Shown piece by piece: positions 2,507-60,840 of a stretch of DNA of 64,000 nucleotides (positions are counted from its first letter, which is position 1; every line of letters starts with the position of its first letter). A program made the translations under genes and the position numbers. The notes below the pieces were generated by a model that worked only from the letters and a program-made list of their open reading frames with translations, was not told the DNA's origin and did not search any database. The DNA is from an uncultured Chloroflexia bacterium (GTDB lineage: Bacteria > Chloroflexota > Ktedonobacteria > Ktedonobacterales > JADMIN01), in NCBI GenBank assembly GCA_963785845.1, contig CAWAWP010000001.1, positions 313,132 through 377,131 on the forward strand, written 5' to 3'.

Positions 2507-2713
2507 GACGCTTGGCTCCTCTCGCACTGCGTGGGCGCACATCCGGCAAACCTCAGCCTTACTCGGTTCGTGCGGCCAACATAGGATTTTAGCATGTTGG
2601 CGGGCCGACCCACAATTCACGGCTGGCGAGGACGCGGCGGCACAGGCGGCCTACCGCCGCAAGGGGTCGCCCCACCTGAGGCAAGAGGAAGCGCCGATGA
2701 GGAGCAGGCGGCG

Positions 2714-3439: not shown

Positions 3440-3514
3440 TCGTTTCTCTAGCGCCGGTGAGCGATTGCTCGCACCTCGCGACGCAGTATGAAGGCACTGT
3501 GTTGCTGCACGGCA

Positions 3515-4435
3515 TCACTCTTCATGCGCTGTGGCGTCGTCGGCGCGCGGCAACACGACACGGAAGGACGCACCGTGCCCTGGGCTGCTCTCTGCGCTCA
3601 GTTCGCCGTCGAGGCGCGCGACAATTTCCTTGCAGATCGCCAGACCCAACCCGAGGCCCTCGGTTGTCCGCGTTGCCTGGTTGTCCACGCGTTGGAAAGT
3701 CTCGAAGATGCGCCCGAGATGCTCGTCTGCGATGCCGATGCCCTCGTCTCGGACGGTGAGTTGGATGGCGGGGCGTAGCGCATCTGCCCCAAGGTGGCCT
3801 GGCGCAAGCGCGATCTCGATTACGCCTCCGACGGGAGAATACTTGATGGCATTCTCGATGAGATTATCTATCACGTCACGAAGGTATCGCGCGTCGCCAA
3901 GCACGAGTCCATTGGCGACGGCCAACGTCTCTGGGTGCTGGCTGATCACGAAGACGCATCGCTGGTGTTCGTCGACCGCCGATGCCAGGCGGCGCTCGGC
4001 TGCGGCAACCGCTTCGCGAACCACGCGCGCCAGCGAAATCGGCTCATGGGCGAGGGTGACGAGGCCCAGTTCGAGCTGCGACAATTCAAGAATGCGTCCG
4101 ACGATGAGCGTGAGGTGGTCGCTCGCTTGATCGATTGCATCGAGAAACTCTTTGCGTTCGGCACCCGACAGGCGCTTCTCGTGCCGGCGAAGGGTCGCGG
4201 CGTAGCCTTTGATGGCGGCGAGCGGGCTGCGCAACTCGTGGCTGATGACGTTTAGCAACTCGGGTGAAAGTCGCTCGGGGTGCTGCGCGCGCTCGACCGA
4301 AGGATTGGCATGCTTGTTCGCGTCGAGGGCGCTGGCGTCGCCCTGGATGATGGCCCGCCCTTCGGCGGTGTCAGGAGAAATCGCGCGGGCGGTCTTTGAC
4401 GACCCATGCGGGAACGGCTGTCGAGTGTCACCCAT
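3515..4435 (-). CDS. Histidine kinase with no recognisable transmembrane or sensor domain
   Basis: H-box ISHELRSPLAAIKGY. ATPase N/G boxes DNLIENAIKYSP, DEGIGI and GLGLGLAICKEIV. The ORF track extends to 4615; I trimmed to ATG 4435, preceded by GGGGAGGAGGATAGGAGC. Only about 90 aa precede the H-box. Confidence 0.85.
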   Translation of the reverse strand: MGDTRQPFPHGSSKTARAISPDTAEGRAIIQGDASALDANKHANPSVERAQHPERLSPELLNVISHELRSPLAAIKGYAATLRRHEKRLSGAERKEFLDAIDQASDHLTLIVGRILELSQLELGLVTLAHEPISLARVVREAVAAAERRLASAVDEHQRCVFVISQHPETLAVANGLVLGDARYLRDVIDNLIENAIKYSPVGGVIEIALAPGHLGADALRPAIQLTVRDEGIGIADEHLGRIFETFQRVDNQATRTTEGLGLGLAICKEIVARLDGELSAESSPGHGASFRVVLPRADDATAHEE

Positions 4436-4672
4436 GCTCCTATCCTCCTCCCCTCGTCGCGGAAAGCGCATCTGCCCGGTGGCGGCGCTACCTCTTGCCT
4501 CGATGATAGTGGCAAGGCGGTCACGCGCTGAACACGCCGTGCGACGATGTGTCTCATACGCGTCACAGTGCGAGGTGACTGGCGCGGTGGACCGCAACGG
4601 GGTGAGCACTGGCAAGCTTCCGCCGCACCTTCAAGGTCCAGGTGAGGGGGGTGCAAGAGGGTGTCGCCAACT

Positions 4673-5007
4673 AATTTCCGTTTTCTTCCGCTTTTTTATG
4701 CCCCGCGTGGGTTCAGCGGTGAATTCAACGGAGGAATGCCGTCAGAAGCGGAAATATCGTGACAGGCGGAAATTTCGCCGCGCATGTGCCACGCTGGTGG
4801 GAAGGGCCGTACCGTGCAGGGGGCGAACACGTTGGGCGATTGACTGGGCGCGCACTGCGAAAGTCCTGTGCTGGGGCATGCGAAGGTGCCTGTGGGGGAT
4901 GATGAAGGGGGTGATGAGGGGCGATGGAAGGTAGGAGGAGGATCGGTGGAAGGACAAGCAGAAGATATGTTCTATTGATTTGTACCACACGCGGAGATAC
5001 ACCGCAA
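4673..5007 (-). ncRNA. Candidate structured leader or sRNA, paralogous module copy A (promoter, operator, conserved blocks, invariant 20-mer)
   Basis: On the minus strand: TTGCGG (5007..5002), 17 nt, TGgTACAAA (4987..4979). The palindrome AGAACATATCTTCT (4973..4960) sits at the predicted TSS. Block-wise similarity to 17288..17599. The invariant 20-mer 4673..4692 pairs with CGGAA repeats at 4746..4753 and 4767..4774. No convincing ORF is conserved between the two copies. Confidence 0.4.
4960..4973. promoter_or_regulatory. GAAC-N4-GTTC-like palindromic operator with one mismatch (AGAAGATATGTTCT)
   Basis: Near-palindrome read directly from the sequence. It starts 5 nt downstream of the predicted minus-strand -10. 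It resembles the Cheo-box class of LexA sites (GAAC-N4-GTTC). Confidence 0.4.
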
Positions 5008-5215
5008 GGGTGAGATCTCGGATAGTCCCGTAGTCGCTGCTCGGAGAGGATCGCCGGGCCGATATGTTACGGAATCTGGATGGATCGCGCTTTCGGTTGT
5101 GGAGACGCTACGGATTTTGCCGGCAGCATGGTGTGGGCGTTCGCCGGACGCACCTATGGGAGAGTCGAGATCCGAATACATGGGGCGCGAGTCTGATCGA
5201 GCGGGCGCAGGCGCG

Positions 5216-5244
5216 TTGACAGCGCACTAACCGGACACTACAAT
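5216..5244 (+). promoter_or_regulatory. Sigma70-type promoter TTGACA-17-TACAAT
   Basis: TTGACA at 5216..5221, a 17-nt spacer, and TACAAT at 5239..5244. It lies about 125 nt upstream of the 5369 start. It shares the flank GCGCGTTGACA with the thr promoter at 17662. Confidence 0.6.
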
Positions 5245-5368
5245 GGGCGCGACCGCCGGGAATTCTCCGTCTGCGGCGCTGGTGTAGCGCGAAGAGTGTT
5301 TTCGGACGTTGCTTGTGGGCATATGGCGCCGCTGGACCGCGCTCACCGCCCGCCAAGGAGCCCTTGTG

Positions 5369-6472
5369 ATGAGTTCGTTTTCTCAACGTCCGGACACGTC
5401 GTTTCCGTCACGCATGGGTGAAGCGCCTGAGCAGGGCGCATCTCAGGTCAGCGCGTGGCTGCGTCTCGCAAGTTGGGGATGGCAGTATCCGCTGCACACC
5501 GTTGCCGACCGCGAGCGGGCACGCCGGAGCCGCTTGGCCGCGTGGGTCATTTTAGGGCTGTTCATCGCCGATGCGGTGATCCTGCCCATCGGCATTGGAG
5601 ATCCTGGTTCAGAAGCCGCCGTCTTGATTCTCGCCGTCGGTCTGGTGGGCGCGGTGCTGCTCAACCGCGGTGGGCATGTCGGCCTGACGGGCGCGCTGAT
5701 CTCCGCGCTGATCATTCTCGCCGCGACGGGCGCCGTGGTCGCCTATCCGCTGGGGCTGACGCTCGATGCGCTGCCGGCGTTCGACCTGCTAGCCATCGCC
5801 ACGGTGATCGCCGCATCGGTGCTGCCGCGGAGAGCAGCCTTTGTAGTCGCGGCGATCAACATCGCGTTGATCGTGGCGGTGTTCTTCTTGATGCCGCACG
5901 CGGTAGATTTGCGGACTGAACTCAACGACAAGACGCTCTATCCGACACCGCTGGTGGCGAGTCTGGCACTGCTCGCCCGCCCGATCGCCTTGCAGGTGAT
6001 TCTCGCGGTGGTGGCCTACCTATGGGTGCGCGGCACCGACGATGCGATACGACGTGCCGACCGCGCCGAAGAGGTGGCTGCGCTAGAACACACCATCGTT
6101 GAGCAGAAGCGGCAACTCGACATCGGCATCCAGCAGATCTTGCAGACACATATTCGCGTGGCGAACGGCGACTTCAGCGCGCGCGCGCCGCTCGGCCAAG
6201 ACAACATCTTGTGGCAGATCTCGTCGTCGCTCAACAATTTGTTGGCGCGGCTGCAACGCTCTGGAAACGCGGAATATCGCATGCAGCGCACCGAGGAGGA
6301 ACTGCAGCGGTTGGCGGCGGCGCTTCGCGACGCGCAGGCGGGACGGCGCCCCATATGGCCAGCGCCGTCAGGAACGGCGGTCGATCCAGTCATCGAAATC
6401 ATCACCGGCGCCAACAGACGATCGCTGCCGCCGCAGTCATCGGTGGACAGGGATATGGAGAACTATCGCTAG
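5369..6472 (+). CDS. Polytopic membrane protein with a C-terminal HAMP-like/coiled-coil segment and no output domain
   Basis: Several hydrophobic helices, e.g. LAAWVILGLFIADAVILPIGI and AFVVAAINIALIVAVFFLM. A HAMP-like stretch follows: IRVANGDFSARAPLGQDNILWQISSSLNNLLARLQ. Start trimmed to ATG 5369 after AAGGAG; the ORF track begins at 5309. Confidence 0.55.
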   Translation: MSSFSQRPDTSFPSRMGEAPEQGASQVSAWLRLASWGWQYPLHTVADRERARRSRLAAWVILGLFIADAVILPIGIGDPGSEAAVLILAVGLVGAVLLNRGGHVGLTGALISALIILAATGAVVAYPLGLTLDALPAFDLLAIATVIAASVLPRRAAFVVAAINIALIVAVFFLMPHAVDLRTELNDKTLYPTPLVASLALLARPIALQVILAVVAYLWVRGTDDAIRRADRAEEVAALEHTIVEQKRQLDIGIQQILQTHIRVANGDFSARAPLGQDNILWQISSSLNNLLARLQRSGNAEYRMQRTEEELQRLAAALRDAQAGRRPIWPAPSGTAVDPVIEIITGANRRSLPPQSSVDRDMENYR

Positions 6473-6535
6473 CGGACCCTCGGCGCACTAGAAGCGGAAG
6501 GAGCTGCAACTTGCACCCGGCCATCGCGACCAAGG

Positions 6536-13808: not shown

Positions 13809-14159
13809 TCAATGCCACCTCTTTCGCCGCACTCGACTTTCGCCCGACTCGACATCCCATGTGTGCGTCGCACCTCTTCGGCCAGGCGTCCGACTACGGT
13901 GCCATCCACGTTAATCGTCTCCGGAAATTGGGTATATTCGTGACTTGGCAGTGATACCCGTCGTGTGTTTGACGTGAACGCTGCCGTTTGCGTCACATGG
14001 AGCGTTAGGGCCATGTGTGGGGTACGCACACGGCCGCCCCACGAGGTATCACGGGAATGTAGGATACCAGCATCACCACACTCTGTTCAAGGAGCCATGC
14101 CTACCGGGCTACTGCCGCCCTGCTTCCGCCATCCACATCTCCCTGGCGCTCACCTGTGG

Positions 14160-17077
14160 TCAACCGCTCAACTGAAAAAGCAACGTCTGAATCTCGCCGC
14201 CACGCAGTCGCGTGCGTACTCCAGTGCTCAAGATGCGTGCCAAAGGGTTTGCCTCAGTTTGCGGGGCCACATCTTCCGCCAAGGTGACGCGGGCGACTTC
14301 GTCGAAGGGCAGCGCGAGGATCACTTCGGCATCGGCGCTGGTGCGAGACATGTTGACGAGACGCACCACCAGTCCGCTGCCGCGTTCCGCCCGCTTGACC
14401 GCGCTTACCATGACACTCCCCGGCGAGACGTGCACGAAGCTCCACAGCGCCGGCAATGCGCCGCTGTGCTGCTCACTGGCGAAGGCGCGGAGTGGGGCTT
14501 GATAAGCGTGCGCTTCGTGCAGCACAAGGGCGTCTTCGGCGTCCCACGCGCCGGCATGCGGCACGAGCGCATACTCGAAGACGTGGCGGCCGAGACCTTG
14601 CGCCGCTGGGGTATGGAGCGCCGGTCCGGCGTGTCCCCGGCGCGTGGCAAGGTCGTCACGAGACAGCCACTCGACGCAGCGCAGCAAGGTGAGCGCCAGC
14701 GCGCTGGAGTTGCCGTCGGCGAGTGTCAGCGACTTCGTACTCTGGCAAGCCGCGATTGAGCAGCGCCAGCCCGGCTGTGCCGTCGCTGAGATCGACGAAG
14801 CGCTGTTGGGGGTGGGTGTCTACCGGCGCTTCGATCCACTCGGACCAGGGTGGCTCGCCCGGCTTCGGCTCTTGGCGAGCGGGGCGGCGCGTGACGCAGA
14901 AGGCGTCTTCGGCGTCTGCGTGCTGGGCGACGAACGGCACTGGGAAAAGCATGCGAAGGCGGTGGTCGCGCGCGGCGTTCTCAACGGTGGTGCGGATCTC
15001 CACGCGGCGGGCGCCAGCGGTCAGCGAGATGTCTGAGGTGATATCGCAGCGCGCGAGCTCGCTGGAGCGCGACGAGCGATCGGCGGCGCAGGCGGCAGGC
15101 AACATATACGTGTTGGTGACACGAAGGGTCGCCCGCGCGGGGCCGGTTTCAAGCAGTTGCAGGCGTGGCGGCCATGCCGGAGCGTCTATCAGCCGTATCG
15201 TGCGCTGGCGGGGAGTAGTTGTAGAGGTCGCCGACGTCGCCCGTGTCGCGCACGTGGTTGAGACCTGCGTACTCGCGCCCGGTGCGCTTGTCGTAGAGCG
15301 TGAAGGCGCCGCTCTGCTCATCGACCGTGAGGCGCAGATGGGCGTTTTCGAGCGAGCTTTCGCTGGCGAGCACGCTGCGGCTGAGCGGACCCGTCTCGAC
15401 GAGGCGGCGCGCGCCATCCGCATCGGCGACGTGTCGCGGTCGCAGGAAGAGCACGCGGCCGCCATGCGGGGGAACGTCGCGCGCGAGCAGCAGTATTTCG
15501 GACTTCTCGGCCTCGCGGGCGACGACATGGAACATGGTCACCTCGGGGCGTTCGAGCAGCGCCTGGATGCGCGGGAGCAACTGCGCTACGACGGCGAGGT
15601 TGGGCGAGACATTCTGTGAGACGGTGAGGAAGAGATTCGCGGTGTCTCCGGTCGGCGGGACATCCAGGTGCGCGTCGAGGATGGCGTAGCCCAGGGCACG
15701 ACCCTCGCTCGCGGTCCCGATGGTGCCAGCGACGAAGTCCTTGTCGATACGCTCGTCGAGGAGCACGCTGCCGCGCGACGAAAGCGCCTGATAGGGCAAC
15801 TCGCGCCCCTCCGCATCCACCAGTTCGGCGTCGGGGGAAAGCAGCACGACCTCGCAGCGCGCGACGTCTGTGCGTGGACCGCTGGCGGGGTTGAAGACGA
15901 CGATTGGCGTCGCGCCTTCGGGCCCGCGCGTGTCAACCCGATGCGAGAGGGAGGCAAGCGACTGCGTGGTCACTGCCTCGGCGATCTGCTCGCTCTGCGC
16001 GAAGCGAGGCAGCATCTCGGCATGGACCTCGTCAATACCACAGCCGCAGATGCTGTCGTGGGGGTGGTTGTGCAGCAGGTGACGCCAGGCAATCGAGAGC
16101 AGGCCGGCGGGGTAGCGATCGCCGAGCGCCCAGGCCCAGGTAGCGGCCGGCTCGGCCAGGCGCGTCAGTAGCGCCTCGCACGCGGCGTTGCGCTGCTTAA
16201 GCCACATACGCGTCGAGAGCACGCCAGGCAGCAGATGGGCGGAGTGGCTGCTGCGAAATTCGCCAGCGTGCCGAGGAAGCGGCTGCTGCGCGTGGCGGAG
16301 GCGGTTGATGTAGTCGGGCAGTGTGCCGATGGCGATGTCGATGCCGTCGGCGGCGAGCAGGTCATTGGCGCTGGCAATGGCGTTCGGCAGCCCCGGTTGC
16401 GGCTCGATGTGGTCGGTGCCGTTCATCAGCAGCGACGTGTCTATCGCGGCGCGCGCCGCCATGCGGGAGGCGATGCGACGCGAGCGCGCGGCGAGCGACT
16501 CTGGTTCGAGCGGCAGCGCGGCGGCGTTGGAGTAGCCGAAGTCGTCGTAGAGCCAGGCGACGAGCACTTCGCTGCCGTCGGGCGCGGACCAGATGAAGGC
16601 GCCGCGTTCCATGCCCGGTGGCACGCCGCGCCAGAAGACGGCGTTGTCGATGCCGAACCCGCGCAGGATCTGCGGCAGTTGCGCGATGTGGCCGAACGTG
16701 TCGGGGACGTAGCCGACGGGCATGACGCCGCCGTAGGCTTCACCCATGCGCCTGCCAACAAGCAGGTTGCGTACGAGAGATTCGCCGCCGACCAGGAATT
16801 CGTCGGGTTGGAGATACCACGGCCCGATCTGCAACCGGCCTTCGCGGGCGAGGCGGAGCAGTCGGTCGGCGTTTTCGGGGCGCACTTCGAGGTAGTCTTC
16901 GAGGACGATCGTCTGTCCGTCGAGCATGAAGTAGGTGAAGCTGGGATCGGCTTCCAGCGTGTCGAGGACGAGGTCGACGGTGCGGACCAAACGCATGCGG
17001 AATTGTTGGAAGGTGAGGTACCACTCGCGATCCCAATGGGTGTGGGGCACCACCAACAGGTGTGTCTCGGCGGCCAT
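14160..17077 (-). pseudogene. GH38 alpha-mannosidase interrupted by two frameshifts (three reading frames)
   Basis: Frame A (17077 to about 15200) starts VVPHTHWDREWY and has HPHDSICGC. Frame B (about 15200 to about 14735) has DHRLRMLFPVPF...GLALLNRGLPEYEV. Frame C (about 14735 to 14160) has ALALTLLRCVEWLSRDDL...HAGAWD. The three pieces are collinear with a normal GH38 protein of about 970 aa. Start trimmed to ATG 17077 after GCAGGAGC. Confidence 0.75.
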
Positions 17078-17287
17078 GCTGCTCCTGCATCGCTTCGTGT
17101 CGTAAGCGCGACGCCCGAGTGTCGCGCGGTGGTGGATGCCGCGACTGAGGCGTTCTGGCAAGTATAGCGCATATGCGACTCCGCCGCACGACAGGGAGAC
17201 CTACCGGAGAGTTTGGCACGCGGTTGGGCTGATGTTCTCTTCCACTGGCGGCTGGGTCGCGCCGCGGAAGACAATCGGCACTTCAAC

Positions 17288-17599
17288 AATTTCCGTTTTC
17301 TTCCGCTTTTTCGTCGCGATCGCGCCGCTGGCTATCGGGCCGGCCCCCGCGCAGGACAACGACGGAGGTGGCGGAAACGGAAATGAGGACACAACGAACA
17401 GTTAGGACTCGCGCGCCAAGAAGGTCAACGATGCGGCGCGATTCGCGACAGAGATGACATAGGTGGTCATGGCGATACTTTACCGGGCCGCACGGCAACA
17501 TCTGGCGAGCGGAATGGAGGTGAATGTTGGGGCGCCGGAGAGAACAAGAAGAACATAAGTTCTAAGGTAACTCTACCACACGCATGGCGTCTGCCGCAA
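17288..17599 (-). ncRNA. Candidate structured leader or sRNA, paralogous module copy B
   Basis: On the minus strand: TTGCGG (17599..17594), 18 nt, TGgTAGAGT (17578..17570). The perfect palindrome AGAACTTATGTTCT (17563..17550) follows. Conserved blocks are shared with 4673..5007. The invariant 20-mer 17288..17307 pairs with GGCGGAAACGGAAAT at 17370..17384. Confidence 0.4.
17550..17563. promoter_or_regulatory. Perfect GAAC-N4-GTTC palindrome (AGAACATAAGTTCT), a Cheo-box-like operator
   Basis: Perfect inverted repeat read directly from the sequence. It starts 6 nt downstream of the predicted minus-strand -10. Confidence 0.45.
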
Positions 17600-17661
17600 G
17601 CAGGGAACTTGCATCCGAGGAACGAGTACTGGCAGGCGAGAAAGACTCTACATAGGGCGCG

Positions 17662-17690
17662 TTGACAAGTGCTTGGAGCTTCGCTATAGT
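17662..17690 (+). promoter_or_regulatory. Sigma70-type promoter TTGACA-17-TATAGT for the thr leader/operon
   Basis: TTGACA at 17662..17667, a 17-nt spacer, and TATAGT at 17685..17690. The leader ORF starts about 50 nt downstream. Confidence 0.65.
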
Positions 17691-17741
17691 GGTGGCACCG
17701 CCAGCGCTTCGTGGAGCTTGGCGCCGCATTGAGGGCTTTCG

Positions 17742-17798
17742 ATGAGCAACGCGCGGAACATCACCACTGCCAGCACCACTACCACCACCGGTGGGTGA
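17742..17798 (+). CDS. Thr-rich leader peptide MSNARNITTASTTTTTGG (18 aa) of a thr-operon attenuator
   Basis: ATG at 17742 is preceded by GAGGG at a 6-nt spacing. Seven of 18 codons are Thr (ACC/ACT) and one is Ile. The TGA stop at 17796..17798 lies just upstream of a GC-rich hairpin followed by a T-run. Confidence 0.7.
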   Translation: MSNARNITTASTTTTTGG

Positions 17799-17823
17799 GG
17801 GCGGCGCGCTGTTGTTGTTGGGC

Positions 17824-17860
17824 AAGCCGACCCGGATTGTACGGGCCGGCTTTTTGTTTG
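17824..17860 (+). terminator. Intrinsic terminator (attenuator) between the leader peptide and thrA
   Basis: Stem GCCGACCCG (17826..17834) pairs with CGGGCCGGC (17842..17850) with one mismatch. The loop is 7 nt, and TTTTTGTTT follows the stem. It lies about 60 nt before the thrA ATG. Confidence 0.65.
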
Positions 17861-17921
17861 CCTTGCGGGTCGAAGCTAACGTCGTTCGTGCTGGTCGGCG
17901 GCGAAGACGAGGTGCCGGGTT

Positions 17922-20378
17922 ATGCGGATACTTAAGTTTGGCGGTTCGTCGGTTGGCTCGCCTGACGCCATACGCCGTGTTGCCGCGATTGTGAGGCGCG
18001 CGCGCGACGAGCGGGGCGAGGTGGTGGTCGTGGTTTCCGCGTTTCAGGGCGTGACCGACGACTTGATTGCGCTTGCGCGACGCGCGGCAGGCGGCGAGCC
18101 GTATCTCGCGCAGTTCGATGCGCTCCACGAGCGGCATGTAACCGTGATGCGGGAGCTGCTGCCGCACGACGTGTGCGCTACGGCGAACGCACACCTGACG
18201 CAGCGCGCGCATGAGTTGGGCGATCTGCTCCACGGCGCGGCGCTGACGCATGAACTGTCGCCGCGACTGCAAGACGCGATCGTGAGCTTTGGCGAGCGAC
18301 TTTCCGCGTACATCATCGCCAGCTTTCTCTCGACGCAAGCAGTACCTGCCGCGTACCTCGATATGCGCGATGTCGTGATCACGGACGCCCAGTTCGGCGC
18401 GGCGCGGGTCGAACGCGAGATCACCTACGGGAAGATACGCGACCATTTCGCCGGTGCCGTGGCAGTACAGGTCGCTACAGGCTTCATCGGTGCGACGGCG
18501 GAGGGTGAGACGACGACGCTGGGGCGTGGCGGCTCAGACTACACGGCATCGCTGCTCGGCGCGGCGCTGGATGCCGAAGAGATCGAGATCTGGACCGATG
18601 TGGACGGCGTGCTCACCGCCGATCCGCGCAAAGTGCCGGAAGCGTTCGCGCTCGACGCGCTCACCTACGAGGAAGCGATGGAACTGGCGCACTTTGGCGC
18701 CAAAGTGATCTACCCACCGACGATTCAGCCCGCGTTGGTGCGCGATATTCCGTTGCGCATCAAGAACACCTTCCGGCCGGAACTTCCCGGCACCGTGATC
18801 GCGAGCCGGCGCGGCCTGTCGACGCACGCCATCACCAGCCTCACGTCGATAAGCTCCATGGCGTTGCTGCTGGTGCGGGGCAGCGGCATGATCGGCGCCG
18901 CCGGCATCGCGATGCGGCTCTTCGGTGCGCTGGCTCGCCAGAGGGTCAGCGCGATCCTGATCACGCAGGCGTCGTCGGAACACACCATCTGCGTCGGCGT
19001 CGATCCGGCTTCCGTGGCGGCGGCGGTCGCCAGCGTCGCCGAGGAGTTCGCGCTGGAGATGCGCGCCGGGTTGATCGAGCCCGTGGACGTGCGTAGCGAC
19101 TGCTCGGCGGTGACGATCGTCGGCGAAGGCATGCGCGAACGTCCCGGTATCGCCAGCACGCTTTTCTCGGCGCTCGGCGAGCGGCACGTCAACGTGATCG
19201 CCATCGCACAGGGGTCGTCCGAACTGAACATCTCGGTGGTCGTCGATCGACGCGACGAGGTGACGTCGCTGCGCGCGATCCACGAGGCATTCTTCGCGCC
19301 GGAGCGGCGACGTCTCAATCTCTTCTTGCTGGGCACCGGGCTGATCGGCGGCACGCTGCTCAAGCAGATCGCCGCGGTGGCGAGTACGCTTCGCCGGGAA
19401 CGCCACCTCTGTCTGCACGTCCGCGGCATCGCCAATAGCCGTCACGCACTCGTCGATGCGGGCGAAGGAATCGACCTGGCTACATGGGACGAGGCGTTGC
19501 AGGCGAGCGACGCGCCGCTCAATCTGGAGACGTTTATCGCGGAAGCGATCCGCTTGCGTGCGCCAAACAGCGTGTTGGTCGACTGCACGGCGAGCGACGC
19601 AGCACCGCAACACTACGCAGAGGCGCTGCGCGCGGGGTTCGCGGTGGTCACGGCGAACAAACGCGGCCTCACCGCGCCATTTGCCGACTATGCGGCACGG
19701 CGCGACGCGGCGCGGCTGAGTCACGCGCCGTTCCGCTATGAGACGACCGTCGGCGCGGCGCTACCTGTGCTGGGCCCGTTGCGCGACTTGCTGGCGACGG
19801 GCGACACGCAGATTGCCATTGAGGGCGTGCTTTCGGGAACGCTGAGCTACGTGTTCAATACGTTCGACGGCACACGGCCATTCAGTGAGGTGCTGCGGTC
19901 AGCACAGGACGCGGGCTACACCGAGCCCGACCCGCGCGACGACCTCAGCGGTACGGATGTCGCGCGGAAGCTGCTCATTCTTGCCCGTGAGTGCGGCTAC
20001 GCTCTGGAAATGGGCGACGTGGCGGTAGAGCAGTTTTTGCCGGCGCGTTGCCGAGAAGCGCCCGGCGTCGACGCCTTTTACGAAGCACTCGCCGCCGAGG
20101 ATGCGTATTTCGAGCGGCTGCGCGCCGACGCCGCGCGGGAGCAGTGCGTGCTGCGCGTCGTCGCGCGGATGCGGGAAGGCAGGTGCTCCGTGGGGCTTGA
20201 ACAGGTCCCGCGAGACGCACCTTTGGCGCATCTGAGCGGGGCAGAGAACTGTGTCGCTATCACCTCCGCACGCTACGCAGCGCAGCCGCTGGTGGTGCGC
20301 GGGCCAGGTGCGGGCGCGGAGGTGACGGCAGGCGGCGTACTCGCCGACATACTACACGTCGCCGAGTGCGGGCGATAA
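17922..20378 (+). CDS. thrA: Bifunctional aspartokinase / homoserine dehydrogenase
   Basis: N-terminal kinase motifs MRILKFGGSSVGS and LGRGGSDYTA. ACT region. C-terminal HSD part: LLGTGLIGGTLLKQI, VVTANK, GAGAEVTAGGVLADI. 818 aa. Confidence 0.9.
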   Translation: MRILKFGGSSVGSPDAIRRVAAIVRRARDERGEVVVVVSAFQGVTDDLIALARRAAGGEPYLAQFDALHERHVTVMRELLPHDVCATANAHLTQRAHELGDLLHGAALTHELSPRLQDAIVSFGERLSAYIIASFLSTQAVPAAYLDMRDVVITDAQFGAARVEREITYGKIRDHFAGAVAVQVATGFIGATAEGETTTLGRGGSDYTASLLGAALDAEEIEIWTDVDGVLTADPRKVPEAFALDALTYEEAMELAHFGAKVIYPPTIQPALVRDIPLRIKNTFRPELPGTVIASRRGLSTHAITSLTSISSMALLLVRGSGMIGAAGIAMRLFGALARQRVSAILITQASSEHTICVGVDPASVAAAVASVAEEFALEMRAGLIEPVDVRSDCSAVTIVGEGMRERPGIASTLFSALGERHVNVIAIAQGSSELNISVVVDRRDEVTSLRAIHEAFFAPERRRLNLFLLGTGLIGGTLLKQIAAVASTLRRERHLCLHVRGIANSRHALVDAGEGIDLATWDEALQASDAPLNLETFIAEAIRLRAPNSVLVDCTASDAAPQHYAEALRAGFAVVTANKRGLTAPFADYAARRDAARLSHAPFRYETTVGAALPVLGPLRDLLATGDTQIAIEGVLSGTLSYVFNTFDGTRPFSEVLRSAQDAGYTEPDPRDDLSGTDVARKLLILARECGYALEMGDVAVEQFLPARCREAPGVDAFYEALAAEDAYFERLRADAAREQCVLRVVARMREGRCSVGLEQVPRDAPLAHLSGAENCVAITSARYAAQPLVVRGPGAGAEVTAGGVLADILHVAECGR

Positions 20379-20426
20379 GCAACTGAGCGCCAGAATGTGG
20401 GCGGCGGGACGACGGAGGCCGAGCGT

Positions 20427-21512
20427 ATGAGCGAGCACGAACAGCCAGGCGAGCGGACATTTGTGCTACCTACGGAGCCGATTGCCGTGGGCATCCTGGG
20501 AGCGACGGGGAGCGTCGGGCAGCGCTTCGTGGAGTTGCTCGCCGGGCATCCCTGGTTCAGACTGACCGCGGTGGCGGCGTCGTCGCAATCGGCGGGGAAG
20601 CCGTACGGCGAAGCGGTGCGCTGGCTGATGTCCACCCCGCTGCCAGATGAGGTGGCGCGGATGAAGGTGGCGGAGTGCACGCCCGACCTGCCGTGTCGCC
20701 TGGTCTTCTCGGCGCTCGATGCGTCGGTGGCGGGCGAGGTCGAGGAAGCGTTCGCCCGCGCCGGCTATATCGTCGTGTCGAACGCGCGCAATCACCGGAT
20801 GGACGCCGACGTGCCGCTGCTGGTGCCGGATGTCAATGCGGAACACCTGCGGTTGGTCGAGCGGCAGCGCTACGGCACGGGCATGATCGTCACCAATCCA
20901 AACTGCTCGACGACGGGACTCGTGCTGGCGTTGAAACCCCTGGCGGACGCCTTCGGGCTCGAAGCGGTCAGCGTTGTCACGCTCCAGGCAGCCTCTGGGG
21001 CGGGCTATCCCGGCGTGCCGAGCCTCGATCTGCTGGACAACGTGATCCCGCGGATCGGCGGGGAGGAGGATAAGCTGGAGACTGAGCCGAAGAAGATACT
21101 CGGCGGCTACGCGGACGGCGCGATCGCCTGGCGCGACGTGGCGATCAGCGCGGCGTGCAATCGTGTCGCCGTGGTCGACGGGCATACGGAGTGTATTTCG
21201 GTGCGGCTACGCGAGAAGCCCTCACTGGAGCGGATAATCGACGCGTGGCGCGCCTATCGAGGCGTGCCGCAGGAGGTAGGATTGCCGCTGGCGCCCGCGC
21301 AGCCGATCCACTATTTTGACGAGCCGTCGTTTCCGCAACCGCGGCTGCATCGGGGGGTAGAGCGCGGCATGGCGGTGAGCGTTGGCCGGCTGCGTCCGTG
21401 CCCGCTGCTCGGCTACAAGTTCGTCGCACTGGTGCACAACACCGTGCGCGGCGCGGCAGGTGGGGCGCTGCTCAACGCCGAACTGATGCTGCGCCAGGGA
21501 TACATCTCGTGA
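20427..21512 (+). CDS. asd: Aspartate-semialdehyde dehydrogenase (archaeal-type)
   Basis: Motifs ILGATGSVGQRF, SNARNHRMD, NPNCSTTGLVLALKPL, LQAASGAGYPG. Start trimmed to ATG 20427; the ORF track begins at 20397. Confidence 0.9.
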   Translation: MSEHEQPGERTFVLPTEPIAVGILGATGSVGQRFVELLAGHPWFRLTAVAASSQSAGKPYGEAVRWLMSTPLPDEVARMKVAECTPDLPCRLVFSALDASVAGEVEEAFARAGYIVVSNARNHRMDADVPLLVPDVNAEHLRLVERQRYGTGMIVTNPNCSTTGLVLALKPLADAFGLEAVSVVTLQAASGAGYPGVPSLDLLDNVIPRIGGEEDKLETEPKKILGGYADGAIAWRDVAISAACNRVAVVDGHTECISVRLREKPSLERIIDAWRAYRGVPQEVGLPLAPAQPIHYFDEPSFPQPRLHRGVERGMAVSVGRLRPCPLLGYKFVALVHNTVRGAAGGALLNAELMLRQGYIS

Positions 21513-22507
21513 GCCGCCTGGGTCATCCGGTCGCCGGTTCGGCGCGCGCGTTTGCTCCGGCGACCGTCGCCAATGTTGGGCCGGGCTTCGACATCTTCGG
21601 GTTTGCCGTGGACGCGCCCGGCGATGAGGTCGTCGCGCGGGTGGGTGCGACGCGTGGAGTGACCATCGTGGCGATTAGCGGTGACGACGGGCGCTTGCCA
21701 CGCGAGGCCGCGGCGAATACCGCTGGCGCCGCGGCGCAGGCGCTGTTGGCCGAACTGGAAGCGCCGTTCGGTGTCGAGATCGAGCTGCACAAGCGCATGC
21801 CGCTCGGCAGTGGCCTCGGCTCGAGCGCGGCGAGCGCGGTCGCGGCTGTCGTCGCGGTCAACGCGCTCTGTGGGTCGCCGCTCTCGCGCCGCGAACTCTT
21901 GCCGTTCGCGCTGGCGGGCGAGCAGGTCTCGTGCTGGCCGGGCGCGGTGCACGCCGATAACGTCGCGGCATGTCTGCTGGGGGGCATCACCCTGATCCGC
22001 GGCATGCATCCGCTCGACGTGGTGCGGTTGCCGGCGCCGGCGTCGCTCTGCTGCGTGTTGGCGCATCCAGCGATCGAGGTGCTGACCGCCGCGGCGCGAC
22101 GTGTGCTCCCCGAGACGGTTCGCCTAGCGGACGCCGTGACGCAGTGGGGCAACGTGGCGGGCGTGGTCGCCGCGCTGTTTCAGTCTGACCTGGCGCTGTT
22201 GGGCCGTTCGCTTTCGGATGTGATCGTCGAGCCGGCTCGCGCCTCACTGATCCCCGGATTCGCGGCGGTGAAGCGCGCGGCGCTGGCGCAGGGCGCGCTC
22301 GGCTGCGGCATTTCGGGCGCGTGCCCGACGATCTTCGCGCTCTGCGAGGCGCGGGCGGTGGCCGAGCGCGTCGGCGCCGCGATGGCGGCGGCTTTCGGCG
22401 AGCACGGCGTGGCGAGCGAGGTCTATGTGTCCGGCATCAATGAAGAAGGCGCGCGCGTGCTCGAAAGCGATACCGCACTCGCGGCCGCGGAGACGGCGGA
22501 GCGGTAG
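21509..22507 (+). CDS. thrB: Homoserine kinase (GHMP family)
   Basis: Motifs ATVANVGPGFDIFG and PLGSGLGSSAASAVAAVVAVNAL. The GTG start at 21509 overlaps the asd stop (GTGA). The ORF-track upstream extension from 21398 overlaps asd. Confidence 0.85.
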   Translation: MSRLGHPVAGSARAFAPATVANVGPGFDIFGFAVDAPGDEVVARVGATRGVTIVAISGDDGRLPREAAANTAGAAAQALLAELEAPFGVEIELHKRMPLGSGLGSSAASAVAAVVAVNALCGSPLSRRELLPFALAGEQVSCWPGAVHADNVAACLLGGITLIRGMHPLDVVRLPAPASLCCVLAHPAIEVLTAAARRVLPETVRLADAVTQWGNVAGVVAALFQSDLALLGRSLSDVIVEPARASLIPGFAAVKRAALAQGALGCGISGACPTIFALCEARAVAERVGAAMAAAFGEHGVASEVYVSGINEEGARVLESDTALAAAETAER

Positions 22508-22516
22508 GAGCGCGAG

Positions 22517-23821
22517 ATGTTACTCTACAGCACCAACGGACGCAGCGCGCCGGTGTCGTTTCGCGACGCGGCGCTGCGCGGTCTCGCCGACGACGGCGGA
22601 CTCTTCATGCCGACGGAGATCCCGACCCTGTCACGGGAATTCTGGCAGAACTGCGGCAGTCTTGGCTTCGCGGAGATCGCGGAGGAGATCGCCGCGACGC
22701 TGCTGAGCGATGAGATTCCGCGAGCGGAGTGCGACCGCATCGTGCGCGACGCGTTCACCTTCGCCGTGCCGCTGGTCGAACTGGCCGCGGATCTCTATGT
22801 CCTCGAACTCTTTCACGGTCCGACGCTGGCCTTCAAGGACTTTGGCGCGCGCTTCATGGCGCGGACGCTCGCGTACCTGCGACGGGACGCCGCACGCGAA
22901 CTCACCGTGCTGGTGGCGACCTCTGGGGATACGGGGAGCGCTGTCGCCCATGGCTTCCACAACGTGCCCGCGACTCGTGTGGTGGTGCTGTATCCCAGCG
23001 GGCAGGTCAGCCACGTGCAAGAGCAGCAATTGACCACCCTCGGCGGCAACGTGGCGGCGCTTGAGGTGCAGGGCAGTTTCGACGACTGCCAGCGTATGGT
23101 CAAAGCGGCTTTCCAAGATGCGGAGCTACGCGCGCGCCTGGATCTCACCTCGGCGAACTCGATCAATATCGCGCGGCTGCTGCCCCAGACTTTCTATTAC
23201 GCTGCCGCCTTTGCTCAGCTTGGCGCGGGGCGGGCGGAGCCGCTCTTTGCCGTGCCGAGCGGCAATTTCGGCAATCTCACCGCCGGGCTGCTCGCGCGAC
23301 GCATGGGGATGCCCGCGCGGGGCTTTCTGGCGACGACCAACGTCAACGACATCGTGCCGAGCTACCTCGTCAGTGGCATCTTCGCGCCGCGCGCCTCGCG
23401 GCGCACGCTTTCTTCGGCGATGGACGTCGGCGATCCGAGCAACTTCGCGCGCATGCTGGCGCTCTTCGCGAACGATCGCGCGCGGATGGCAGCCGAGATA
23501 CGCGGCTATCGCGCGACGGATGCCGAGACGCTGGTTGGCATGCGCGAACTCTACGACGCCTACGGGTACGTCGCCGATCCGCACACGGCGGTCGGCTATC
23601 TGGGCAGCCAGAGCGACAGGGCGGAGTATGGCGTCGCAGGCCCTAGGATCGTGCTGGCGACGGCGCACCCGGCCAAATTCGCGGAGGTGTGCCGCGCGGC
23701 CTTAGGCATCGAGGTAGAGCTACCGGAGGCGCTGCGTGAAGCGCTGACGCTCCCCAAGCAGGCGACACCACTTGCGCCAACCGACGCGGCGCTACGCGAT
23801 TTCCTGTTGACTGAGGGGTAA
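22517..23821 (+). CDS. thrC: Threonine synthase
   Basis: The PLP-lysine region FHGPTLAFKDFGARFMA and TSGDTGSAVAHG. Last gene of the thr cluster. Confidence 0.9.
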   Translation: MLLYSTNGRSAPVSFRDAALRGLADDGGLFMPTEIPTLSREFWQNCGSLGFAEIAEEIAATLLSDEIPRAECDRIVRDAFTFAVPLVELAADLYVLELFHGPTLAFKDFGARFMARTLAYLRRDAARELTVLVATSGDTGSAVAHGFHNVPATRVVVLYPSGQVSHVQEQQLTTLGGNVAALEVQGSFDDCQRMVKAAFQDAELRARLDLTSANSINIARLLPQTFYYAAAFAQLGAGRAEPLFAVPSGNFGNLTAGLLARRMGMPARGFLATTNVNDIVPSYLVSGIFAPRASRRTLSSAMDVGDPSNFARMLALFANDRARMAAEIRGYRATDAETLVGMRELYDAYGYVADPHTAVGYLGSQSDRAEYGVAGPRIVLATAHPAKFAEVCRAALGIEVELPEALREALTLPKQATPLAPTDAALRDFLLTEG

Positions 23822-23975
23822 TACCAGGCCGTCTTCGATGGCTGGCGCGCCCGCTGATCCTGGCGTGATGGCCACGGCGCATCCTGGTCCACGCCCGCGG
23901 TGTGACCGCCAACCAGCCCACCGGGATCGGGCTGGCGGCAACGGGGAGTGAAGCAGGTGGTGAAGGGTTGAACGC

Positions 23976-25481
23976 CTAGTGGCCGAGCGTGAAGAGGCTA
24001 TTGGCGCTGGTGGTGAGCGAGGTCAGAAGCACACCAAAGGCGACGGTGAGCGCGAGAATGCCGAAGACGGCGAGGCCCATCGTCGCATTGACGGCCCCGG
24101 ACACCGAGAGGCGGTCGCGCTTGACCGGCTCGATGACGTACATGCGCCAGAGGACGTTGACGTAGTACGCGATCGAGATCGCGCTGTTGATCAGGGCGAG
24201 GATCACCAGCCAGGTGAGCGCCGATCCTTCATTCCAGGCCGAGACGAGAATGAAGACCTTGCTGAGGAAGCCAGCCATCGGCGGAATGCCGGCGAGCGAG
24301 AGCAGGCAGAGCGCGAAGCCGAAGGCGATCCAGGGGCTGCGCCTGCCGAAGCCGTCGAAGTCGCGGATATTTTCTTTGCCCGTGGCATCCGCGAGGGCGA
24401 TGATGCCCGCGAAGGCGCCGATGTTAGTGACCACATAGACGGCGAGGAAGGCGAGCATGCCTAACTCGGCGCTCGGCGTGTTGTGGATCATCACCGCGGC
24501 GAGACCGACCAGCAGATAGCCCGCCTGGCCGATGCTGCTGTAGGCCATCATGCGCTTAATGTTGGTCTGCAGCAGCGCGACGATGTTACCGAGGGTCATC
24601 GTCAGCGCGGCCACGATCGCCACTAGCACCCAGAGATAGGCGCTACTCGCCGCGATAAGGCCACCGAAGACGAACACGCGCAGCAGCGCCGCGAACCCCG
24701 CGGCCTTGGAGCCAACAGAGAAGAACAGTGTGGAGGGCGCGGGCGAGCCTTCGTAGATGTCTGGCGCCCACATGTGGAAGGGCACCGCCGAGACCTTGAA
24801 GCCGAAGCCGGTGAAGATGAAGACATCCGCGGCGAGGAGCATCAGGTTGCCGCTTTGTAAACCGTTGGGACCGAAGACCCCCGCGATGGTGACCAGATCG
24901 GTGCTACCAGTCGCGCCGTAGAGCAGTGCCATGCCGTAGAGCAGGATCGCCGACGACATCGCGCCCAGCAGCACATACTTCACCGCGGACTCCGCGGAGC
25001 GCCCATCGGTGCGCGAAAGGCCCGCCAGGATGTAGAGCGGGATGCTGGTGAGCTCAAGAGAAATGTAGATCGTGATCAACTCGCCGGTGCTGGCCATCAG
25101 CATCATGCCCGCGACGGAGAGCAGGATCACGCCGTAGTATTCCCCGACCGTGACACGCAGATATTTCTCGACGTAGCCGTAGGAGACTAGCATCACGCCG
25201 AAGCCGATCAGCAGGAAGAGGAACTCGAAGAAGAAGGCGAAGTTGTCGACGACGAGCATGCCGAAGAAGGCAGTGCCATTGCTGGGCAGCGGCCCGAACC
25301 ATTGGCCGACGAGCGAGAGCGTGAGGACGGCGGGAACGATGAGCCCGACCAGCGCCACGATGGTGACGAGTCCGCGACGTTTCGTGATGAGATCCAATGC
25401 GAACACCAGAGAGCCAAGGATGACGACGCTCAACTCAGGTGAGAGCATCCAGATCTCTGTCGCGCCAATCTGTGAATTCAT
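23976..25481 (-). CDS. nuoN: NADH-quinone oxidoreductase subunit N
   Basis: Polytopic antiporter-like protein (FHMWAPDIYEGSP motif). Terminal gene of the J-K-L-M-N series. Confidence 0.9.
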   Translation of the reverse strand: MNSQIGATEIWMLSPELSVVILGSLVFALDLITKRRGLVTIVALVGLIVPAVLTLSLVGQWFGPLPSNGTAFFGMLVVDNFAFFFEFLFLLIGFGVMLVSYGYVEKYLRVTVGEYYGVILLSVAGMMLMASTGELITIYISLELTSIPLYILAGLSRTDGRSAESAVKYVLLGAMSSAILLYGMALLYGATGSTDLVTIAGVFGPNGLQSGNLMLLAADVFIFTGFGFKVSAVPFHMWAPDIYEGSPAPSTLFFSVGSKAAGFAALLRVFVFGGLIAASSAYLWVLVAIVAALTMTLGNIVALLQTNIKRMMAYSSIGQAGYLLVGLAAVMIHNTPSAELGMLAFLAVYVVTNIGAFAGIIALADATGKENIRDFDGFGRRSPWIAFGFALCLLSLAGIPPMAGFLSKVFILVSAWNEGSALTWLVILALINSAISIAYYVNVLWRMYVIEPVKRDRLSVSGAVNATMGLAVFGILALTVAFGVLLTSLTTSANSLFTLGH

Positions 25482-25569
25482 CGCTGCTCTCGCCTTCCTC
25501 CAGGTTTCGCGGCCGTCTCTATCGTTACTTTTTTGTGGGGTGTGCGGGTGCTAGATGGTGGGTGGGCGA

Positions 25570-27141
25570 TCAATGGGCAAGCGCCTGGACGGTGCCGAGC
25601 ATCTGGTGCAGGGATGGCTTGATCAGATCAGTGATCGGCCCGGGAAAGATGCCGACGAAGATCACGACCACGGCGAGGGAGATCAGCGGGAACGCCTCCA
25701 GCAGATCGGCGTCGCGCAGCCATGTCCACTTCAGATTCAATGGACCGTAGAACGCGCGACGCAACATCCAGAGGAGGTAGCCCGCCGTCAGCACGACGCC
25801 GAACGCCGCGAGGATCGTCACGACCGGCAAGATCGAGAAAGAGCCGGTGAAGACGAGAAACTCGGCGACGAAGCCGGAGAGCGCGGGCAGCCCCAGCGAG
25901 GCGAAACACGCCACCGAGAAGAGCAGCGTAAGCATCGGCATGCGCTGGGCAATGCCGCCGAAGACGCCTATCTCGCGCGTGTGCGCCTTCTCGTACAGCA
26001 CGCCCACGGCGAAGAAGAGCATCGCGGTAATGGTTCCATGAGTGAACATTTGCAGCGTCGCACCGGTGAGCGCCGCCTGGCGCAGATCGGCGGCATTCGC
26101 CCCAGCAGTGGTGGAGACCGCGGCGGCGGCGGCAACGCCTAGCAACACATAACCCATGTGGCTGACGCTGGAGTAGGCAATCATCTTCTTCATGTCGTGC
26201 TGGACCATCGAAGCGCCGGCGCCCCAGAGGACGTTGATCGCGGCGAAGATGCCCAGCGCTGGGGCGAAAGCTACCGCGCCATGTGGCACAAAGCCGAGGC
26301 AGATACGGATCAAGCCATACGCGCCCATCTTCAGGAGCACACCGGCCAGCAGCACGCTCACCGCGGTGGGCGCCTCGGTGTGGGCGTCTGGTAGCCAGGT
26401 ATGCACCGGCCACATAGGGATCTTGACGGCGAAGCCCGCGAAGAGCAGCAAGAAGACGATCAAAGGCAGCGAGACCAATCCACCAAAGAGCGGAAGGTTG
26501 CCAGTCACCGAGGAGCCAGCGGCGGCGAAGTGCTGAAAAGTCGCGCTGGTGGCGCCGGTCCGTATGTAGAGCAAGAAGATGCCCGCCAGCGTGAAGGACG
26601 AGCCGACCAGCGTGTAGATCAAGAACTTCCAGGCGGCATATTCGCGTCGCGACCCGCCCCAGATTCCGATCAGCAGGAACATGGGGATCAACTCCACCTC
26701 CCAGAAGAGGATGAAGAGGAAGAGGTCGAAGGAGGCGAAGACGCCCATCACTCCGGTCTCAAGGAAGAGCATCAACGCCATATAGAAGCGCTGGCGTTTC
26801 TCAAGTCGCCACGAACTGACGACGGCGAGGAAGGTGAGCAGGCCGTTGAGGATGATCAGTGGGATGCTGAGGCCGTCAGCGCCGAAGGCGAAGCGTACCT
26901 GGAAGTGGAAGCCGCCGATATTGGCATTGATCCACGGCTCGTTTACAGCCCATTGCGGATTCATGACATCGCCGAAGGGGCTGCCGTTGAAGATGATGCC
27001 AAAGTAGAGCCAGAGGCTCAACAGGAAGACGGCAAGGCTGAACACCGCGGCGCTCCACTTACCGAAGCGCTCCGGGACGAGTAACGTCACCACTCCACCG
27101 AGGAGGGGTCCGAAGACTATTGCTGGGAGCAGCCAGCTCAT
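25570..27141 (-). CDS. nuoM: NADH-quinone oxidoreductase subunit M
   Basis: Antiporter-like subunit with WLPDAHTEAPTAVSVLLAG and MIAYSSVSHMG. Confidence 0.9.
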   Translation of the reverse strand: MSWLLPAIVFGPLLGGVVTLLVPERFGKWSAAVFSLAVFLLSLWLYFGIIFNGSPFGDVMNPQWAVNEPWINANIGGFHFQVRFAFGADGLSIPLIILNGLLTFLAVVSSWRLEKRQRFYMALMLFLETGVMGVFASFDLFLFILFWEVELIPMFLLIGIWGGSRREYAAWKFLIYTLVGSSFTLAGIFLLYIRTGATSATFQHFAAAGSSVTGNLPLFGGLVSLPLIVFLLLFAGFAVKIPMWPVHTWLPDAHTEAPTAVSVLLAGVLLKMGAYGLIRICLGFVPHGAVAFAPALGIFAAINVLWGAGASMVQHDMKKMIAYSSVSHMGYVLLGVAAAAAVSTTAGANAADLRQAALTGATLQMFTHGTITAMLFFAVGVLYEKAHTREIGVFGGIAQRMPMLTLLFSVACFASLGLPALSGFVAEFLVFTGSFSILPVVTILAAFGVVLTAGYLLWMLRRAFYGPLNLKWTWLRDADLLEAFPLISLAVVVIFVGIFPGPITDLIKPSLHQMLGTVQALAH

Positions 27142-41709: not shown

Positions 41710-42000
41710 GTCTCTGTTTCTCCTCATCATTGATGGATGCGGGGCGCGATCGCGACGCTGCGATCCGCTCCGAGTCGGCGCGTAATGTCTCAGTGCGCGA
41801 TGGGCATAGCGGGCGGTCGCGGCCCCTTCGCTACCGTGAAGCCTACCATTTGACCGCAAGGGACGCAAGCAGCGAGCGGCAGGTGATGCCTCTGTGACAC
41901 CGCGTCGTGTCAGGGTGGCGCCGTAGTTCTTGCGCGTGGCGTCGCTGCTCGCAAGGTTCTCATGTGCTGGTGCAGCGCGCAACATTTTCCTACCAGGAAC

Positions 42001-42020
42001 AATTTCCGTTTTCTTCCGCT
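42001..42020. repeat. Third copy of the invariant 20-mer AATTTCCGTTTTCTTCCGCT
   Basis: Identical to 4673..4692 and 17288..17307, in the same orientation. It lies 292 nt upstream of the pckG start on the opposite strand. Confidence 0.8.
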
Positions 42021-60745: not shown

Positions 60746-60840
60746 AGGGGCGAACAATCGGCTACCGCACCCCACCTGGAGCACGATAGCCGGGAATTGG
60801 TAGCGGGGGGCGGATTCGAACCGCCGACCTCCGGGTTATG

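Follow-up and report, generated by a model that had tools for sequence, protein, structure and literature searches.

We examined a thrL-like element that lies directly ahead of the threonine operon thrA-asd-thrB-thrC in a 64,000-nucleotide stretch of DNA (hereafter the window) from an uncultured Chloroflexia bacterium of the order Ktedonobacterales. An earlier inspection of the letters alone (the sequence-only reading) had proposed that positions 17662..17921 hold a leader-peptide transcription attenuator that senses threonine, and this is the reading best supported by the present analysis: the layout recurs upstream of thrA in six of six relatives, the two strands of the proposed antiterminator are pairable in 91.7% of alignment cells, and the predicted folds of the leader RNA depend upon where a ribosome stalls. 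From sequence comparison and fold modelling we put the probability at about 80% that the element is a functional Thr (and probably Ile) leader-peptide attenuator of the thrA-asd-thrB-thrC operon.

All coordinates and sequences given earlier for 17662..17921 were re-read and found to match. The promoter described there is present, with TTGACA at 17662..17667 and TATAGT at 17685..17690 separated by a 17-nt spacer, and a sigma-70 consensus scan of positions 14000..26000 returned it as the top promoter-like site; transcription would start near 17697, about 7 nt past TATAGT. The small open reading frame (ORF) was likewise recovered as described, preceded by a Shine-Dalgarno (SD) sequence, starting with ATG at 17742, encoding 18 sense codons (MSNARNITTASTTTTTGG) of which seven specify Thr and one Ile, and closed by TGA at 17796..17798. 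The segment GGGCGGC directly behind the stop (17799..17805) can pair, as had been suggested, with GCCG-A-CCC (17826..17833) through 7 bp with a bulged A, and this duplex is lengthened by GCU (17808-10) pairing with GGC (17821-23), for a predicted energy of -16.2 kcal/mol. A terminator hairpin with a T-run is also present, though its arms are slightly longer than first claimed (17824..17834 and 17842..17852): AAGCCG-A-CCCG, a 7-nt loop and CGGG-C-CGGCUU are followed by UUUGUUU, with one A.C mismatch and a predicted energy of -17.2 kcal/mol. Because of this mismatch, the predicted energies of antiterminator and terminator are nearly equal in the window. The thrA ATG stands at 17922, as originally assigned, 71 nt beyond the terminator; the gene upstream of the leader (15149..17161) is on the opposite strand, so that the terminator does not belong to it.

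Each of these elements was compared with the rest of the window, whose G+C content is 65.3%. Twelve-codon windows with at least seven Thr codons were found in the leader ORF alone when all six frames of the 64 kb were searched (about 0.08 such windows were estimated to occur by chance), and no leader ORF with a run of His, Leu, Phe, Trp, Ile or Val codons was found elsewhere in the window. A generic scan for terminators passed over that of the attenuator on account of its A.C mismatch; a custom scan for hairpins of at least 7 bp, with at most one mismatch and at least five G-C pairs, followed by a T-rich run, gave just one site over the two strands of the 64 kb, at 17824..17858, and the same terminator is the sole place in the 64 kb with at least 8 T in 9 nt. 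The composite motif that extends from the stop codon through the right terminator arm occurs once in the window, at the leader, and had no match in 100 window shuffles. GC-rich DNA does fold well by chance, and the window leader has a folding z-score near -1, as might be expected if a promoter-like site, an ORF and a hairpin had merely come to lie together in a long intergenic region; but each element is unique in 64 kb and the set is kept in six relatives, so that chance co-occurrence is effectively refuted. As a separate observation, no canonical intrinsic terminators were detected at the gene ends of this stretch by a scan tolerating one mismatch.

The comparison with relatives covered loci in which thrA is first in the operon and upstream DNA could be obtained. 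There were six of these, all in Chloroflexota/Ktedonobacterales-type metagenome-assembled genomes (MAGs), with ThrA proteins 54-75% identical to that of the window (L001, 75%; L141, 65%, its leader cut by a contig end; L137, 62%; L002 and L139, 56% each; L140, 54%); two further loci, L136 with only 20 nt of upstream DNA and P0007 with an N-terminally truncated ThrA, were left out of the leader comparison. The layout seen in the window recurs in 6/6. A promoter of the form TTGACA-17-TA[T/G]AGT is common to L001, L002, L137, L139 and L140, and every full-length relative has a GGAG or GGGG SD motif at a comparable distance, followed by a leader ORF of 19-24 codons. The TGA is followed directly by GG[G/A/U]CGG[C/U]GCG and then by a pyrimidine-rich spacer; TGAGGNCGGYGCG is kept right at the stop codon in all seven leaders, as is the pyrimidine/U-rich spacer (columns 87-106 of alignment A1, which comprises the window and its six relatives), the latter including U7 in L002. 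The relatives' terminator consists of GCCG[G/A]CCCG, a loop, CGGGCCGGC and a U-run, and it lies 39-71 nt 5' of thrA. When the composite motif was sought in 143 loci it was found in five (L001, L137, L139, L140 and L141), each time ahead of a thrA of the Chloroflexota type; the exact pattern does not pick up L002, whose motif differs by one base.

The leader peptides themselves have diverged (MLHARFQTTAITITTTTGW, MWLSNRRALAVTTTTATTTTTTSG, ..ITTITTITTTGG, MGACSGLTIITRATTQTTTTTG, MSAISVLNIITRATTQTTTTTG and MNGLLAMNIIARATTQIITTTG), with reading frame, start, SD sequence and Thr/Ile enrichment retained, which is the expectation for a leader in which codons are counted. The seven leaders have 5-10 Thr codons each, and six of them contain Ile codons as well; in each the last Thr codon stands one or two codons short of the stop, the closing non-Thr codon is always Gly or Trp, and the conserved post-stop segment abuts the stop in every leader. 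The third positions of the Thr codons vary (ACC, ACT, ACG, ACA) while frame, start and SD are kept, and this argues that the ORF is translated. A translated ORF might instead encode a peptide with a function of its own, for example a Thr-rich precursor of a peptide made on ribosomes and modified after translation (RiPP) or a micro-protein, that by chance lies upstream of thrA. Ktedonobacteria are rich in RiPP clusters (PMC6497799) and Thr-rich cores are known in lanthipeptides and thiopeptides; still, no modification, transport or immunity genes are adjacent, conservation is limited to composition, and the ORF is always coupled to the terminator and thrA, which makes this origin of the ORF very improbable.

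Outside this group the element was not encountered. ThrA loci of Bacteroidota, Ignavibacteriota, Planctomycetota, Acidobacteriota and others (28-51% identity) had no Thr-rich upstream ORF, and a metagenome scan with ThrA gave no relative above 51% identity and no leader among the matches. L138, in which the gene order is thrB-thrC-thrA (ThrA 56% identical; 1655..6493), has no Thr-rich ORF or terminator in the 120 nt upstream of thrB, and L142 (ThrA 53% identical) has no leader. The element is thus not universal among ThrA relatives near 55% identity, and the case of L138 ties it to the thrA-first form of the operon. In L139 and L140 we also noted two tRNA genes each (2864..3123 in L139, 2901..3154 in L140), 87-88 nt long and of the long-arm type. 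They follow tyrS and a hydrolase gene and are placed roughly 700-1000 nt upstream of the leader, an arrangement of conserved synteny that has nothing to do with the attenuator.

The pairing potential of the leader was assessed on alignment A1. Pairing in the terminator helix extends to 97.4% of cells, and one compensatory pair (A-U / G-C / G.U) was found in it, among seven sequences only. The antiterminator, whose strands are the stop codon plus GGNCGGC.GCG and the left terminator arm plus the three bases 5' of it, reaches its 91.7% only in register; sliding the partner by 1-3 columns lowers the figure to 26-44%. Similar antiterminator pairings are predicted in the relatives, and across the leaders the predicted energies are -16 to -23 kcal/mol for the antiterminator and -16 to -26 kcal/mol for the terminator. 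A third helix joins the GCGCG and ACC-run segments inside the ORF with GGUGGGUGAGGGCGGCGCGC; in untranslated RNA the region 1 segments pair with region 2 in the minimum free energy (MFE) folds, and this 1:2 hairpin is part of the minimum-energy fold in five of the six full-length leaders, the isolated ORF segment of L137 forming the inner part only.

These pairings suggest a mechanism in which expression of thrA-asd-thrB-thrC would be set by the supply of charged tRNA-Thr, and probably of tRNA-Ile too, through three mutually exclusive helices (Table 1): 1:2, between ORF-internal segments and the post-stop UGAGGGCGGCGCGC; 2:3, the antiterminator, between the same UGAGGGCGGCGCGC and GGC..GCCGACCC; and 3:4, the terminator hairpin, followed by UUUUUGUUU. 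With Thr-tRNA in ample supply, the ribosome would reach the TGA at 17796 and cover 17799..17805, leaving region 3 free to pair with region 4, and transcription would end near 17855-17860 to yield a transcript of about 160 nt. In RNA that is not translated, the 1:2 hairpin would hold region 2 and termination would follow likewise. Were Thr-tRNA scarce, the ribosome would stall with a Thr codon in its A site, the 1:2 hairpin would be melted and region 2 exposed, and region 2 would pair with region 3 as the latter emerges, so that the terminator would come too late and RNA polymerase would enter thrA. Given the short distance between the last Thr codon and the stop (one or two codons) and the placing of region 2 directly against the stop, an advance of three codons by the ribosome would decide whether region 2 is exposed. 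The U-rich spacer at 17810..17820 may make the polymerase pause and so bring it into step with the ribosome; in a 65% G+C genome it could represent a pause site that depends on the hairpin or else a first, weak terminator.

To mimic a stalled ribosome, the mRNA was cut away to a point 12 nt beyond the first base of the codon in the A site. When Thr codon 8, 12, 14 or 16 occupies the A site and the RNA extends to 17841, so that region 4 has yet to be made, the predicted fold pairs 17826..17833 with 17799..17805, at -12 to -16 kcal/mol. If the A site instead holds the stop codon, or if there is no ribosome and 1:2 forms, the antiterminator is absent from the predicted fold and the terminator forms once region 4 is added. 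Measured against the trpL/hisL/thrL class, the window thus has a codon-enriched SD-led ORF (7 of 18 codons for Thr), an intrinsic terminator before the first gene and, in silico, an antiterminator that depends on stalling and is masked at the stop.

Several observations weigh against attenuation by a Thr-sensing leader. In every simulated ribosome state the terminator wins at thermodynamic equilibrium, so that read-through must depend on the antiterminator forming first, which is a kinetic assumption; such antiterminator-first trapping is the standard assumption for the textbook attenuators. Among the seven sequences no antiterminator pair shows two-sided changes, the only changes being one-sided, from G-C to G.U, and mismatches occur at columns 78/117 in four of the seven and at 84/111 in three. 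The alignment is small (n=7) and falls into two tight subgroups. The energy of the 2:3 duplex is only moderately unusual, in that a fraction of 0.007-0.21 of random 16-mers from the same loci are at least as stable. The 1:2 hairpin is no stabler than shuffled sequences in the window (z -1.1), L001 (-1.2) and L137 (-0.7); it is stabler than shuffles in L002, L139 and L140 (z -2.5 to -4.7). Because both the whole-leader and the 1:2 z-scores of the window are ordinary (-1.1), folding energy was dropped as evidence for the window itself. Finally, the window has a single Ile codon, and the case for an Ile input is therefore drawn from the relatives.

Some of these same points would suit an upstream ORF joined to a leaky terminator or pause that fixes the level of expression, or that aids re-initiation of translation or mRNA stability, and senses no Thr at all: the terminator is favoured at equilibrium in all states, the A.C mismatch could make that of the window leaky, and leader ORFs have been proposed to boost translation via re-initiation (PMC4833913). 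Such a constitutive element would leave unexplained both the Thr/Ile enrichment in every relative ahead of the threonine operon and the conserved segment that abuts the stop and is complementary to the left terminator arm; moreover, the ORF stop is 124 nt from the thrA ATG with the terminator between them, which is far for re-initiation. We regard it as improbable, and the Thr-sensing attenuator as the better account of the same features.

Codon choice in the leaders differs from that of the genes they precede. Over the seven leaders the Thr codons are ACC (31), ACT (16), ACG (4) and ACA (2), and in the window leader ACC (5) and ACT (2) with no ACG. Of the 47 Thr codons in the window thrA, 29 are ACG, the commonest, 15 are ACC and none is ACT, and the adjacent thrA genes in general rely mainly on ACG and ACC, with hardly any ACT. 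Possible reasons for the skew are the sensing of a single tRNA-Thr isoacceptor, sharper stalling at rare codons, or a constraint set on the third base by RNA pairing. The last of these touches another explanation, in which a protein or ligand binds the ACC/ACU-repeat RNA (a TRAP- or PyrR-like regulator, or a riboswitch) and the ORF is a by-product of the repeats. Under that explanation the skew relative to the genes' own usage could be an RNA-level constraint, and the ACY repeats do, with GGU/GGG, form part of the predicted 1:2 hairpin. Against this, the SD-start, the frame and the position of the stop relative to region 2 are kept in all full-length relatives, whereas the repeats vary freely in pattern, in length and in the codons that interrupt them (Ala, Ser, Gln and Ile); codons for Ile, which is made from Thr, co-occur in six of seven leaders; and Thr_leader is the sole Rfam family that matches, even with the cut-off relaxed to E <= 10. 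A sensor that bypasses the ribosome is accordingly an unlikely explanation, and a ribosome that reads Thr codons the favoured one.

Table 1. Features of the leader and of the threonine operon in the window.
Feature	Position	Strand	Basis or remark
Sigma-70-type promoter	17662..17690	+	consensus match 11/12
Shine-Dalgarno GAGGG	17732..17736	+	5 nt 5' of leader ATG 17742
thrL-like leader ORF, MSNARNITTASTTTTTGG + TGA	17742..17798	+	sole Thr run that dense in six frames
Region 1, ORF-internal GCGCG (17751-55), CUGCC (17767-71), CACC...ACC (17774-82)	17751..17797	+	MFE folds
Regulatory codons	17760..17789	+	Ile ATC 17760; Thr 17763, 17766, 17775, 17778, 17781, 17784, 17787
Region 2, UGA GGGCGGCGCGCU	17796..17810	+	predicted partner of region 1 or, alternatively, region 3
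U-rich spacer UGUUGUUGUUG	17810..17820	+	3' of 1:2 hairpin
Region 3, GGCAAGCCGACCCG	17821..17834	+	terminator left arm and antiterminator 3' strand
Region 4, CGGGCCGGCUU (terminator right arm), and U tract UUUUUGUUU	17842..17859	+	folds, alignment
thrA, bifunctional aspartate kinase / homoserine dehydrogenase I	17922..20378	+	NCBIfam PRK09436, 967 bits (cutoff 726)
asd, asd_EA type	20427..21512	+	TIGR00978, 426 bits
thrB, homoserine kinase	21509..22507	+	likely GTG start overlaps asd stop (GTGA)
thrC, threonine synthase	22517..23821	+	last gene of operon; next gene, nuoN, convergent

The longest asd ORF begins at 20397, the likelier start being the ATG at 20427 behind GGAGG, and the 4-nt overlap of thrB with asd is seen likewise in L136. 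The description of the asd gene as archaeal-type is correct as a family name (asd_EA); L139 and L140 have the leader and lack asd between thrA and thrB. The ThrA proteins nearest to that of the window belong to MAGs labelled Chloroflexia, Chloroflexi or Ktedonobacterales, and the nearest named relatives of an independent marker, a GTP-dependent phosphoenolpyruvate (PEP) carboxykinase encoded elsewhere in the window (39934..42165), are almost exclusively from Ktedonobacterales MAGs (70-78% identity), which places the source of the window in a Ktedonobacteria-like lineage of Chloroflexota. The longest ORF of the latter gene, on the minus strand, has 743 amino acids and its homologues have about 590, covering 79%; translation probably begins some 150 codons past the first GTG. 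On the minus strand, 60866..61072 matches a group I intron (RF00028, 54.3 bits). Downstream of it on the same strand is an apparent tRNA 3' half that starts at a CAU anticodon (CAUAACCCGGAGGUCGGCGGUUCGAAUCCGCCCCCCGCUACCA), and an intact tRNA-Met(CAT) follows at 60670..60745 (minus strand), the whole occupying 60670..61072. No matching tRNA 5' exon was seen upstream of the intron; intron and tRNA half may represent an intron-split tRNA-Met whose 5' half was unrecognised, or a remnant.

The sequence-only reading had called for a search with the Rfam threonine leader model (RF00506, Thr_leader; gathering score 55 bits). The model does align at the leader, but at 22.2 bits in the window (E 0.074, 501 nt) it falls below that score, and at gathering thresholds Rfam reports nothing at the leader locus. 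The alignment is full-length at the leader in the window, L002 (29.9 bits), L140 (29.4) and L137 (23.7), and the 5'-truncated L141 gives 26.2 bits. The leader of an unrelated Bacteroidota ilvA locus (L027), taken as a control, scored 20.2 bits, so that scores of 22-30 bits reflect a generic ACC run plus terminator. Membership in RF00506 was therefore rejected (22.2-29.9 bits against 55, with the control at 20.2); the comparison indicates an element that works like thrL and is outside the RF00506 family. A T-box riboswitch was rejected as well, there being no RF00230 at gathering score in the window and none at E <= 10 in 17500..18000. T-box leaders likewise respond to tRNA charging and choose between terminator and antiterminator, but they bind the tRNA directly, whereas the window element would sense it via translation of the ORF.

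The control locus deserves mention for its own sake. In L027, a Roseivirgaceae MAG (Bacteroidota), a short Thr/Ile-rich ORF (MSVISKITSTIITATSTTTITGGKEDQ) with a hairpin and U-run at 1387..1535 precedes ilvA (threonine dehydratase, 1565..2872), which is followed by thrA; the arrangement looks like an Ile/Thr leader-peptide attenuator, in a further phylum outside the Proteobacteria. It shares with the window the Thr/Ile-rich short ORF, the hairpin plus U-run and a thrA-containing operon; it differs in that ilvA is the first gene and in that it is AT-rich and unrelated in sequence, and only one Bacteroidota locus was seen to have it.

The likeness to E. coli thrL is one of architecture. Both have a short ORF rich in Thr codons (mostly ACC) and Ile codons with Gly codons at its end, pairing of an ACC run with GGU, an antiterminator built on the left arm of a GC-rich terminator, a U-run, and a position directly before an operon led by thrA (the fused aspartate kinase-homoserine dehydrogenase I). 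In E. coli, however, region 2 (GGUGCGGGCU) is inside the last ORF codons, and in the window it is directly after the stop; there is no likeness of peptide or nucleotide sequence beyond composition; and the window operon includes asd and belongs to a Chloroflexota host, whereas thrL and RF00506 are gammaproteobacterial. ThrA of the window is 39% identical to that of E. coli and about 50% to those of Bacteroidota, and the nearest non-Chloroflexota thrA loci have no leader. The low identity to E. coli ThrA, the leaderless nearest outgroup loci and the lack of sequence likeness favour an independent origin over transfer of a gammaproteobacterial cassette, the two possibilities that had been raised; convergence is probably the correct view, as a leaning and not a proof.

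The remark in the sequence-only reading that such leaders are documented mainly in Proteobacteria agrees with published surveys (PMC3766115, PMC2965389). The four amino-acid leader motifs in Rfam have been assigned a probable origin in gamma-proteobacteria with few horizontal transfers, and the Chloroflexi motifs listed in the same work include T-boxes (PMC3766115). Until the Firmicutes His leader, which Naville & Gautheret argued to be convergent, leader-peptide systems are stated to have been demonstrated in Proteobacteria and Actinobacteria alone (PMC2965389). The trp/ilv/leu leaders of Actinobacteria (PMC1262725) and the His and branched-chain amino acid leaders of Firmicutes (PMC2965389, PMC9413887, PMC5794164) follow the same logic as the window element, but they are lineage-restricted and respond to other amino acids; upstream of the threonine genes of Actinobacteria no conserved RNA element was found (PMC1262725). 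None of these four papers describes an amino-acid leader-peptide attenuator in Chloroflexi, and no threonine leader in Chloroflexi or Ktedonobacteria was found in the literature searched, though older surveys may contain an earlier prediction.

We would give roughly even odds to a fuller proposal, that Ktedonobacteria-type Chloroflexota independently evolved a multivalent Thr + Ile attenuator convergent with thrL down to the terminal Gly, with its antiterminator strand placed just past the stop, which would imply tight coupling of transcription and translation, and with the near-exclusive choice of ACC and ACT, the latter hardly ever used in the genes themselves, directing it to a single tRNA-Thr isoacceptor (GGU anticodon).

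Attenuators with an amino-acid leader peptide are standard textbook material, as is the mechanism proposed here; what is notable is the phylogenetic position, the coupling that it implies and the choice of ACC and ACT codons. Nearly all documented cases are from Proteobacteria, Actinobacteria and Firmicutes contributing a scattered few, and a leader of the Ktedonobacteria type would add a phylum. It would also offer a clean case of convergent evolution, in which the same regulatory logic arose at the same operon. In these genomes it draws attention to two features left unannotated by gene callers and Rfam, a small translated ORF and a regulatory terminator. Transcription-translation coupling differs among bacterial lineages, and the leader predicts that in Chloroflexota the two processes are coupled, a prediction that can be tested.

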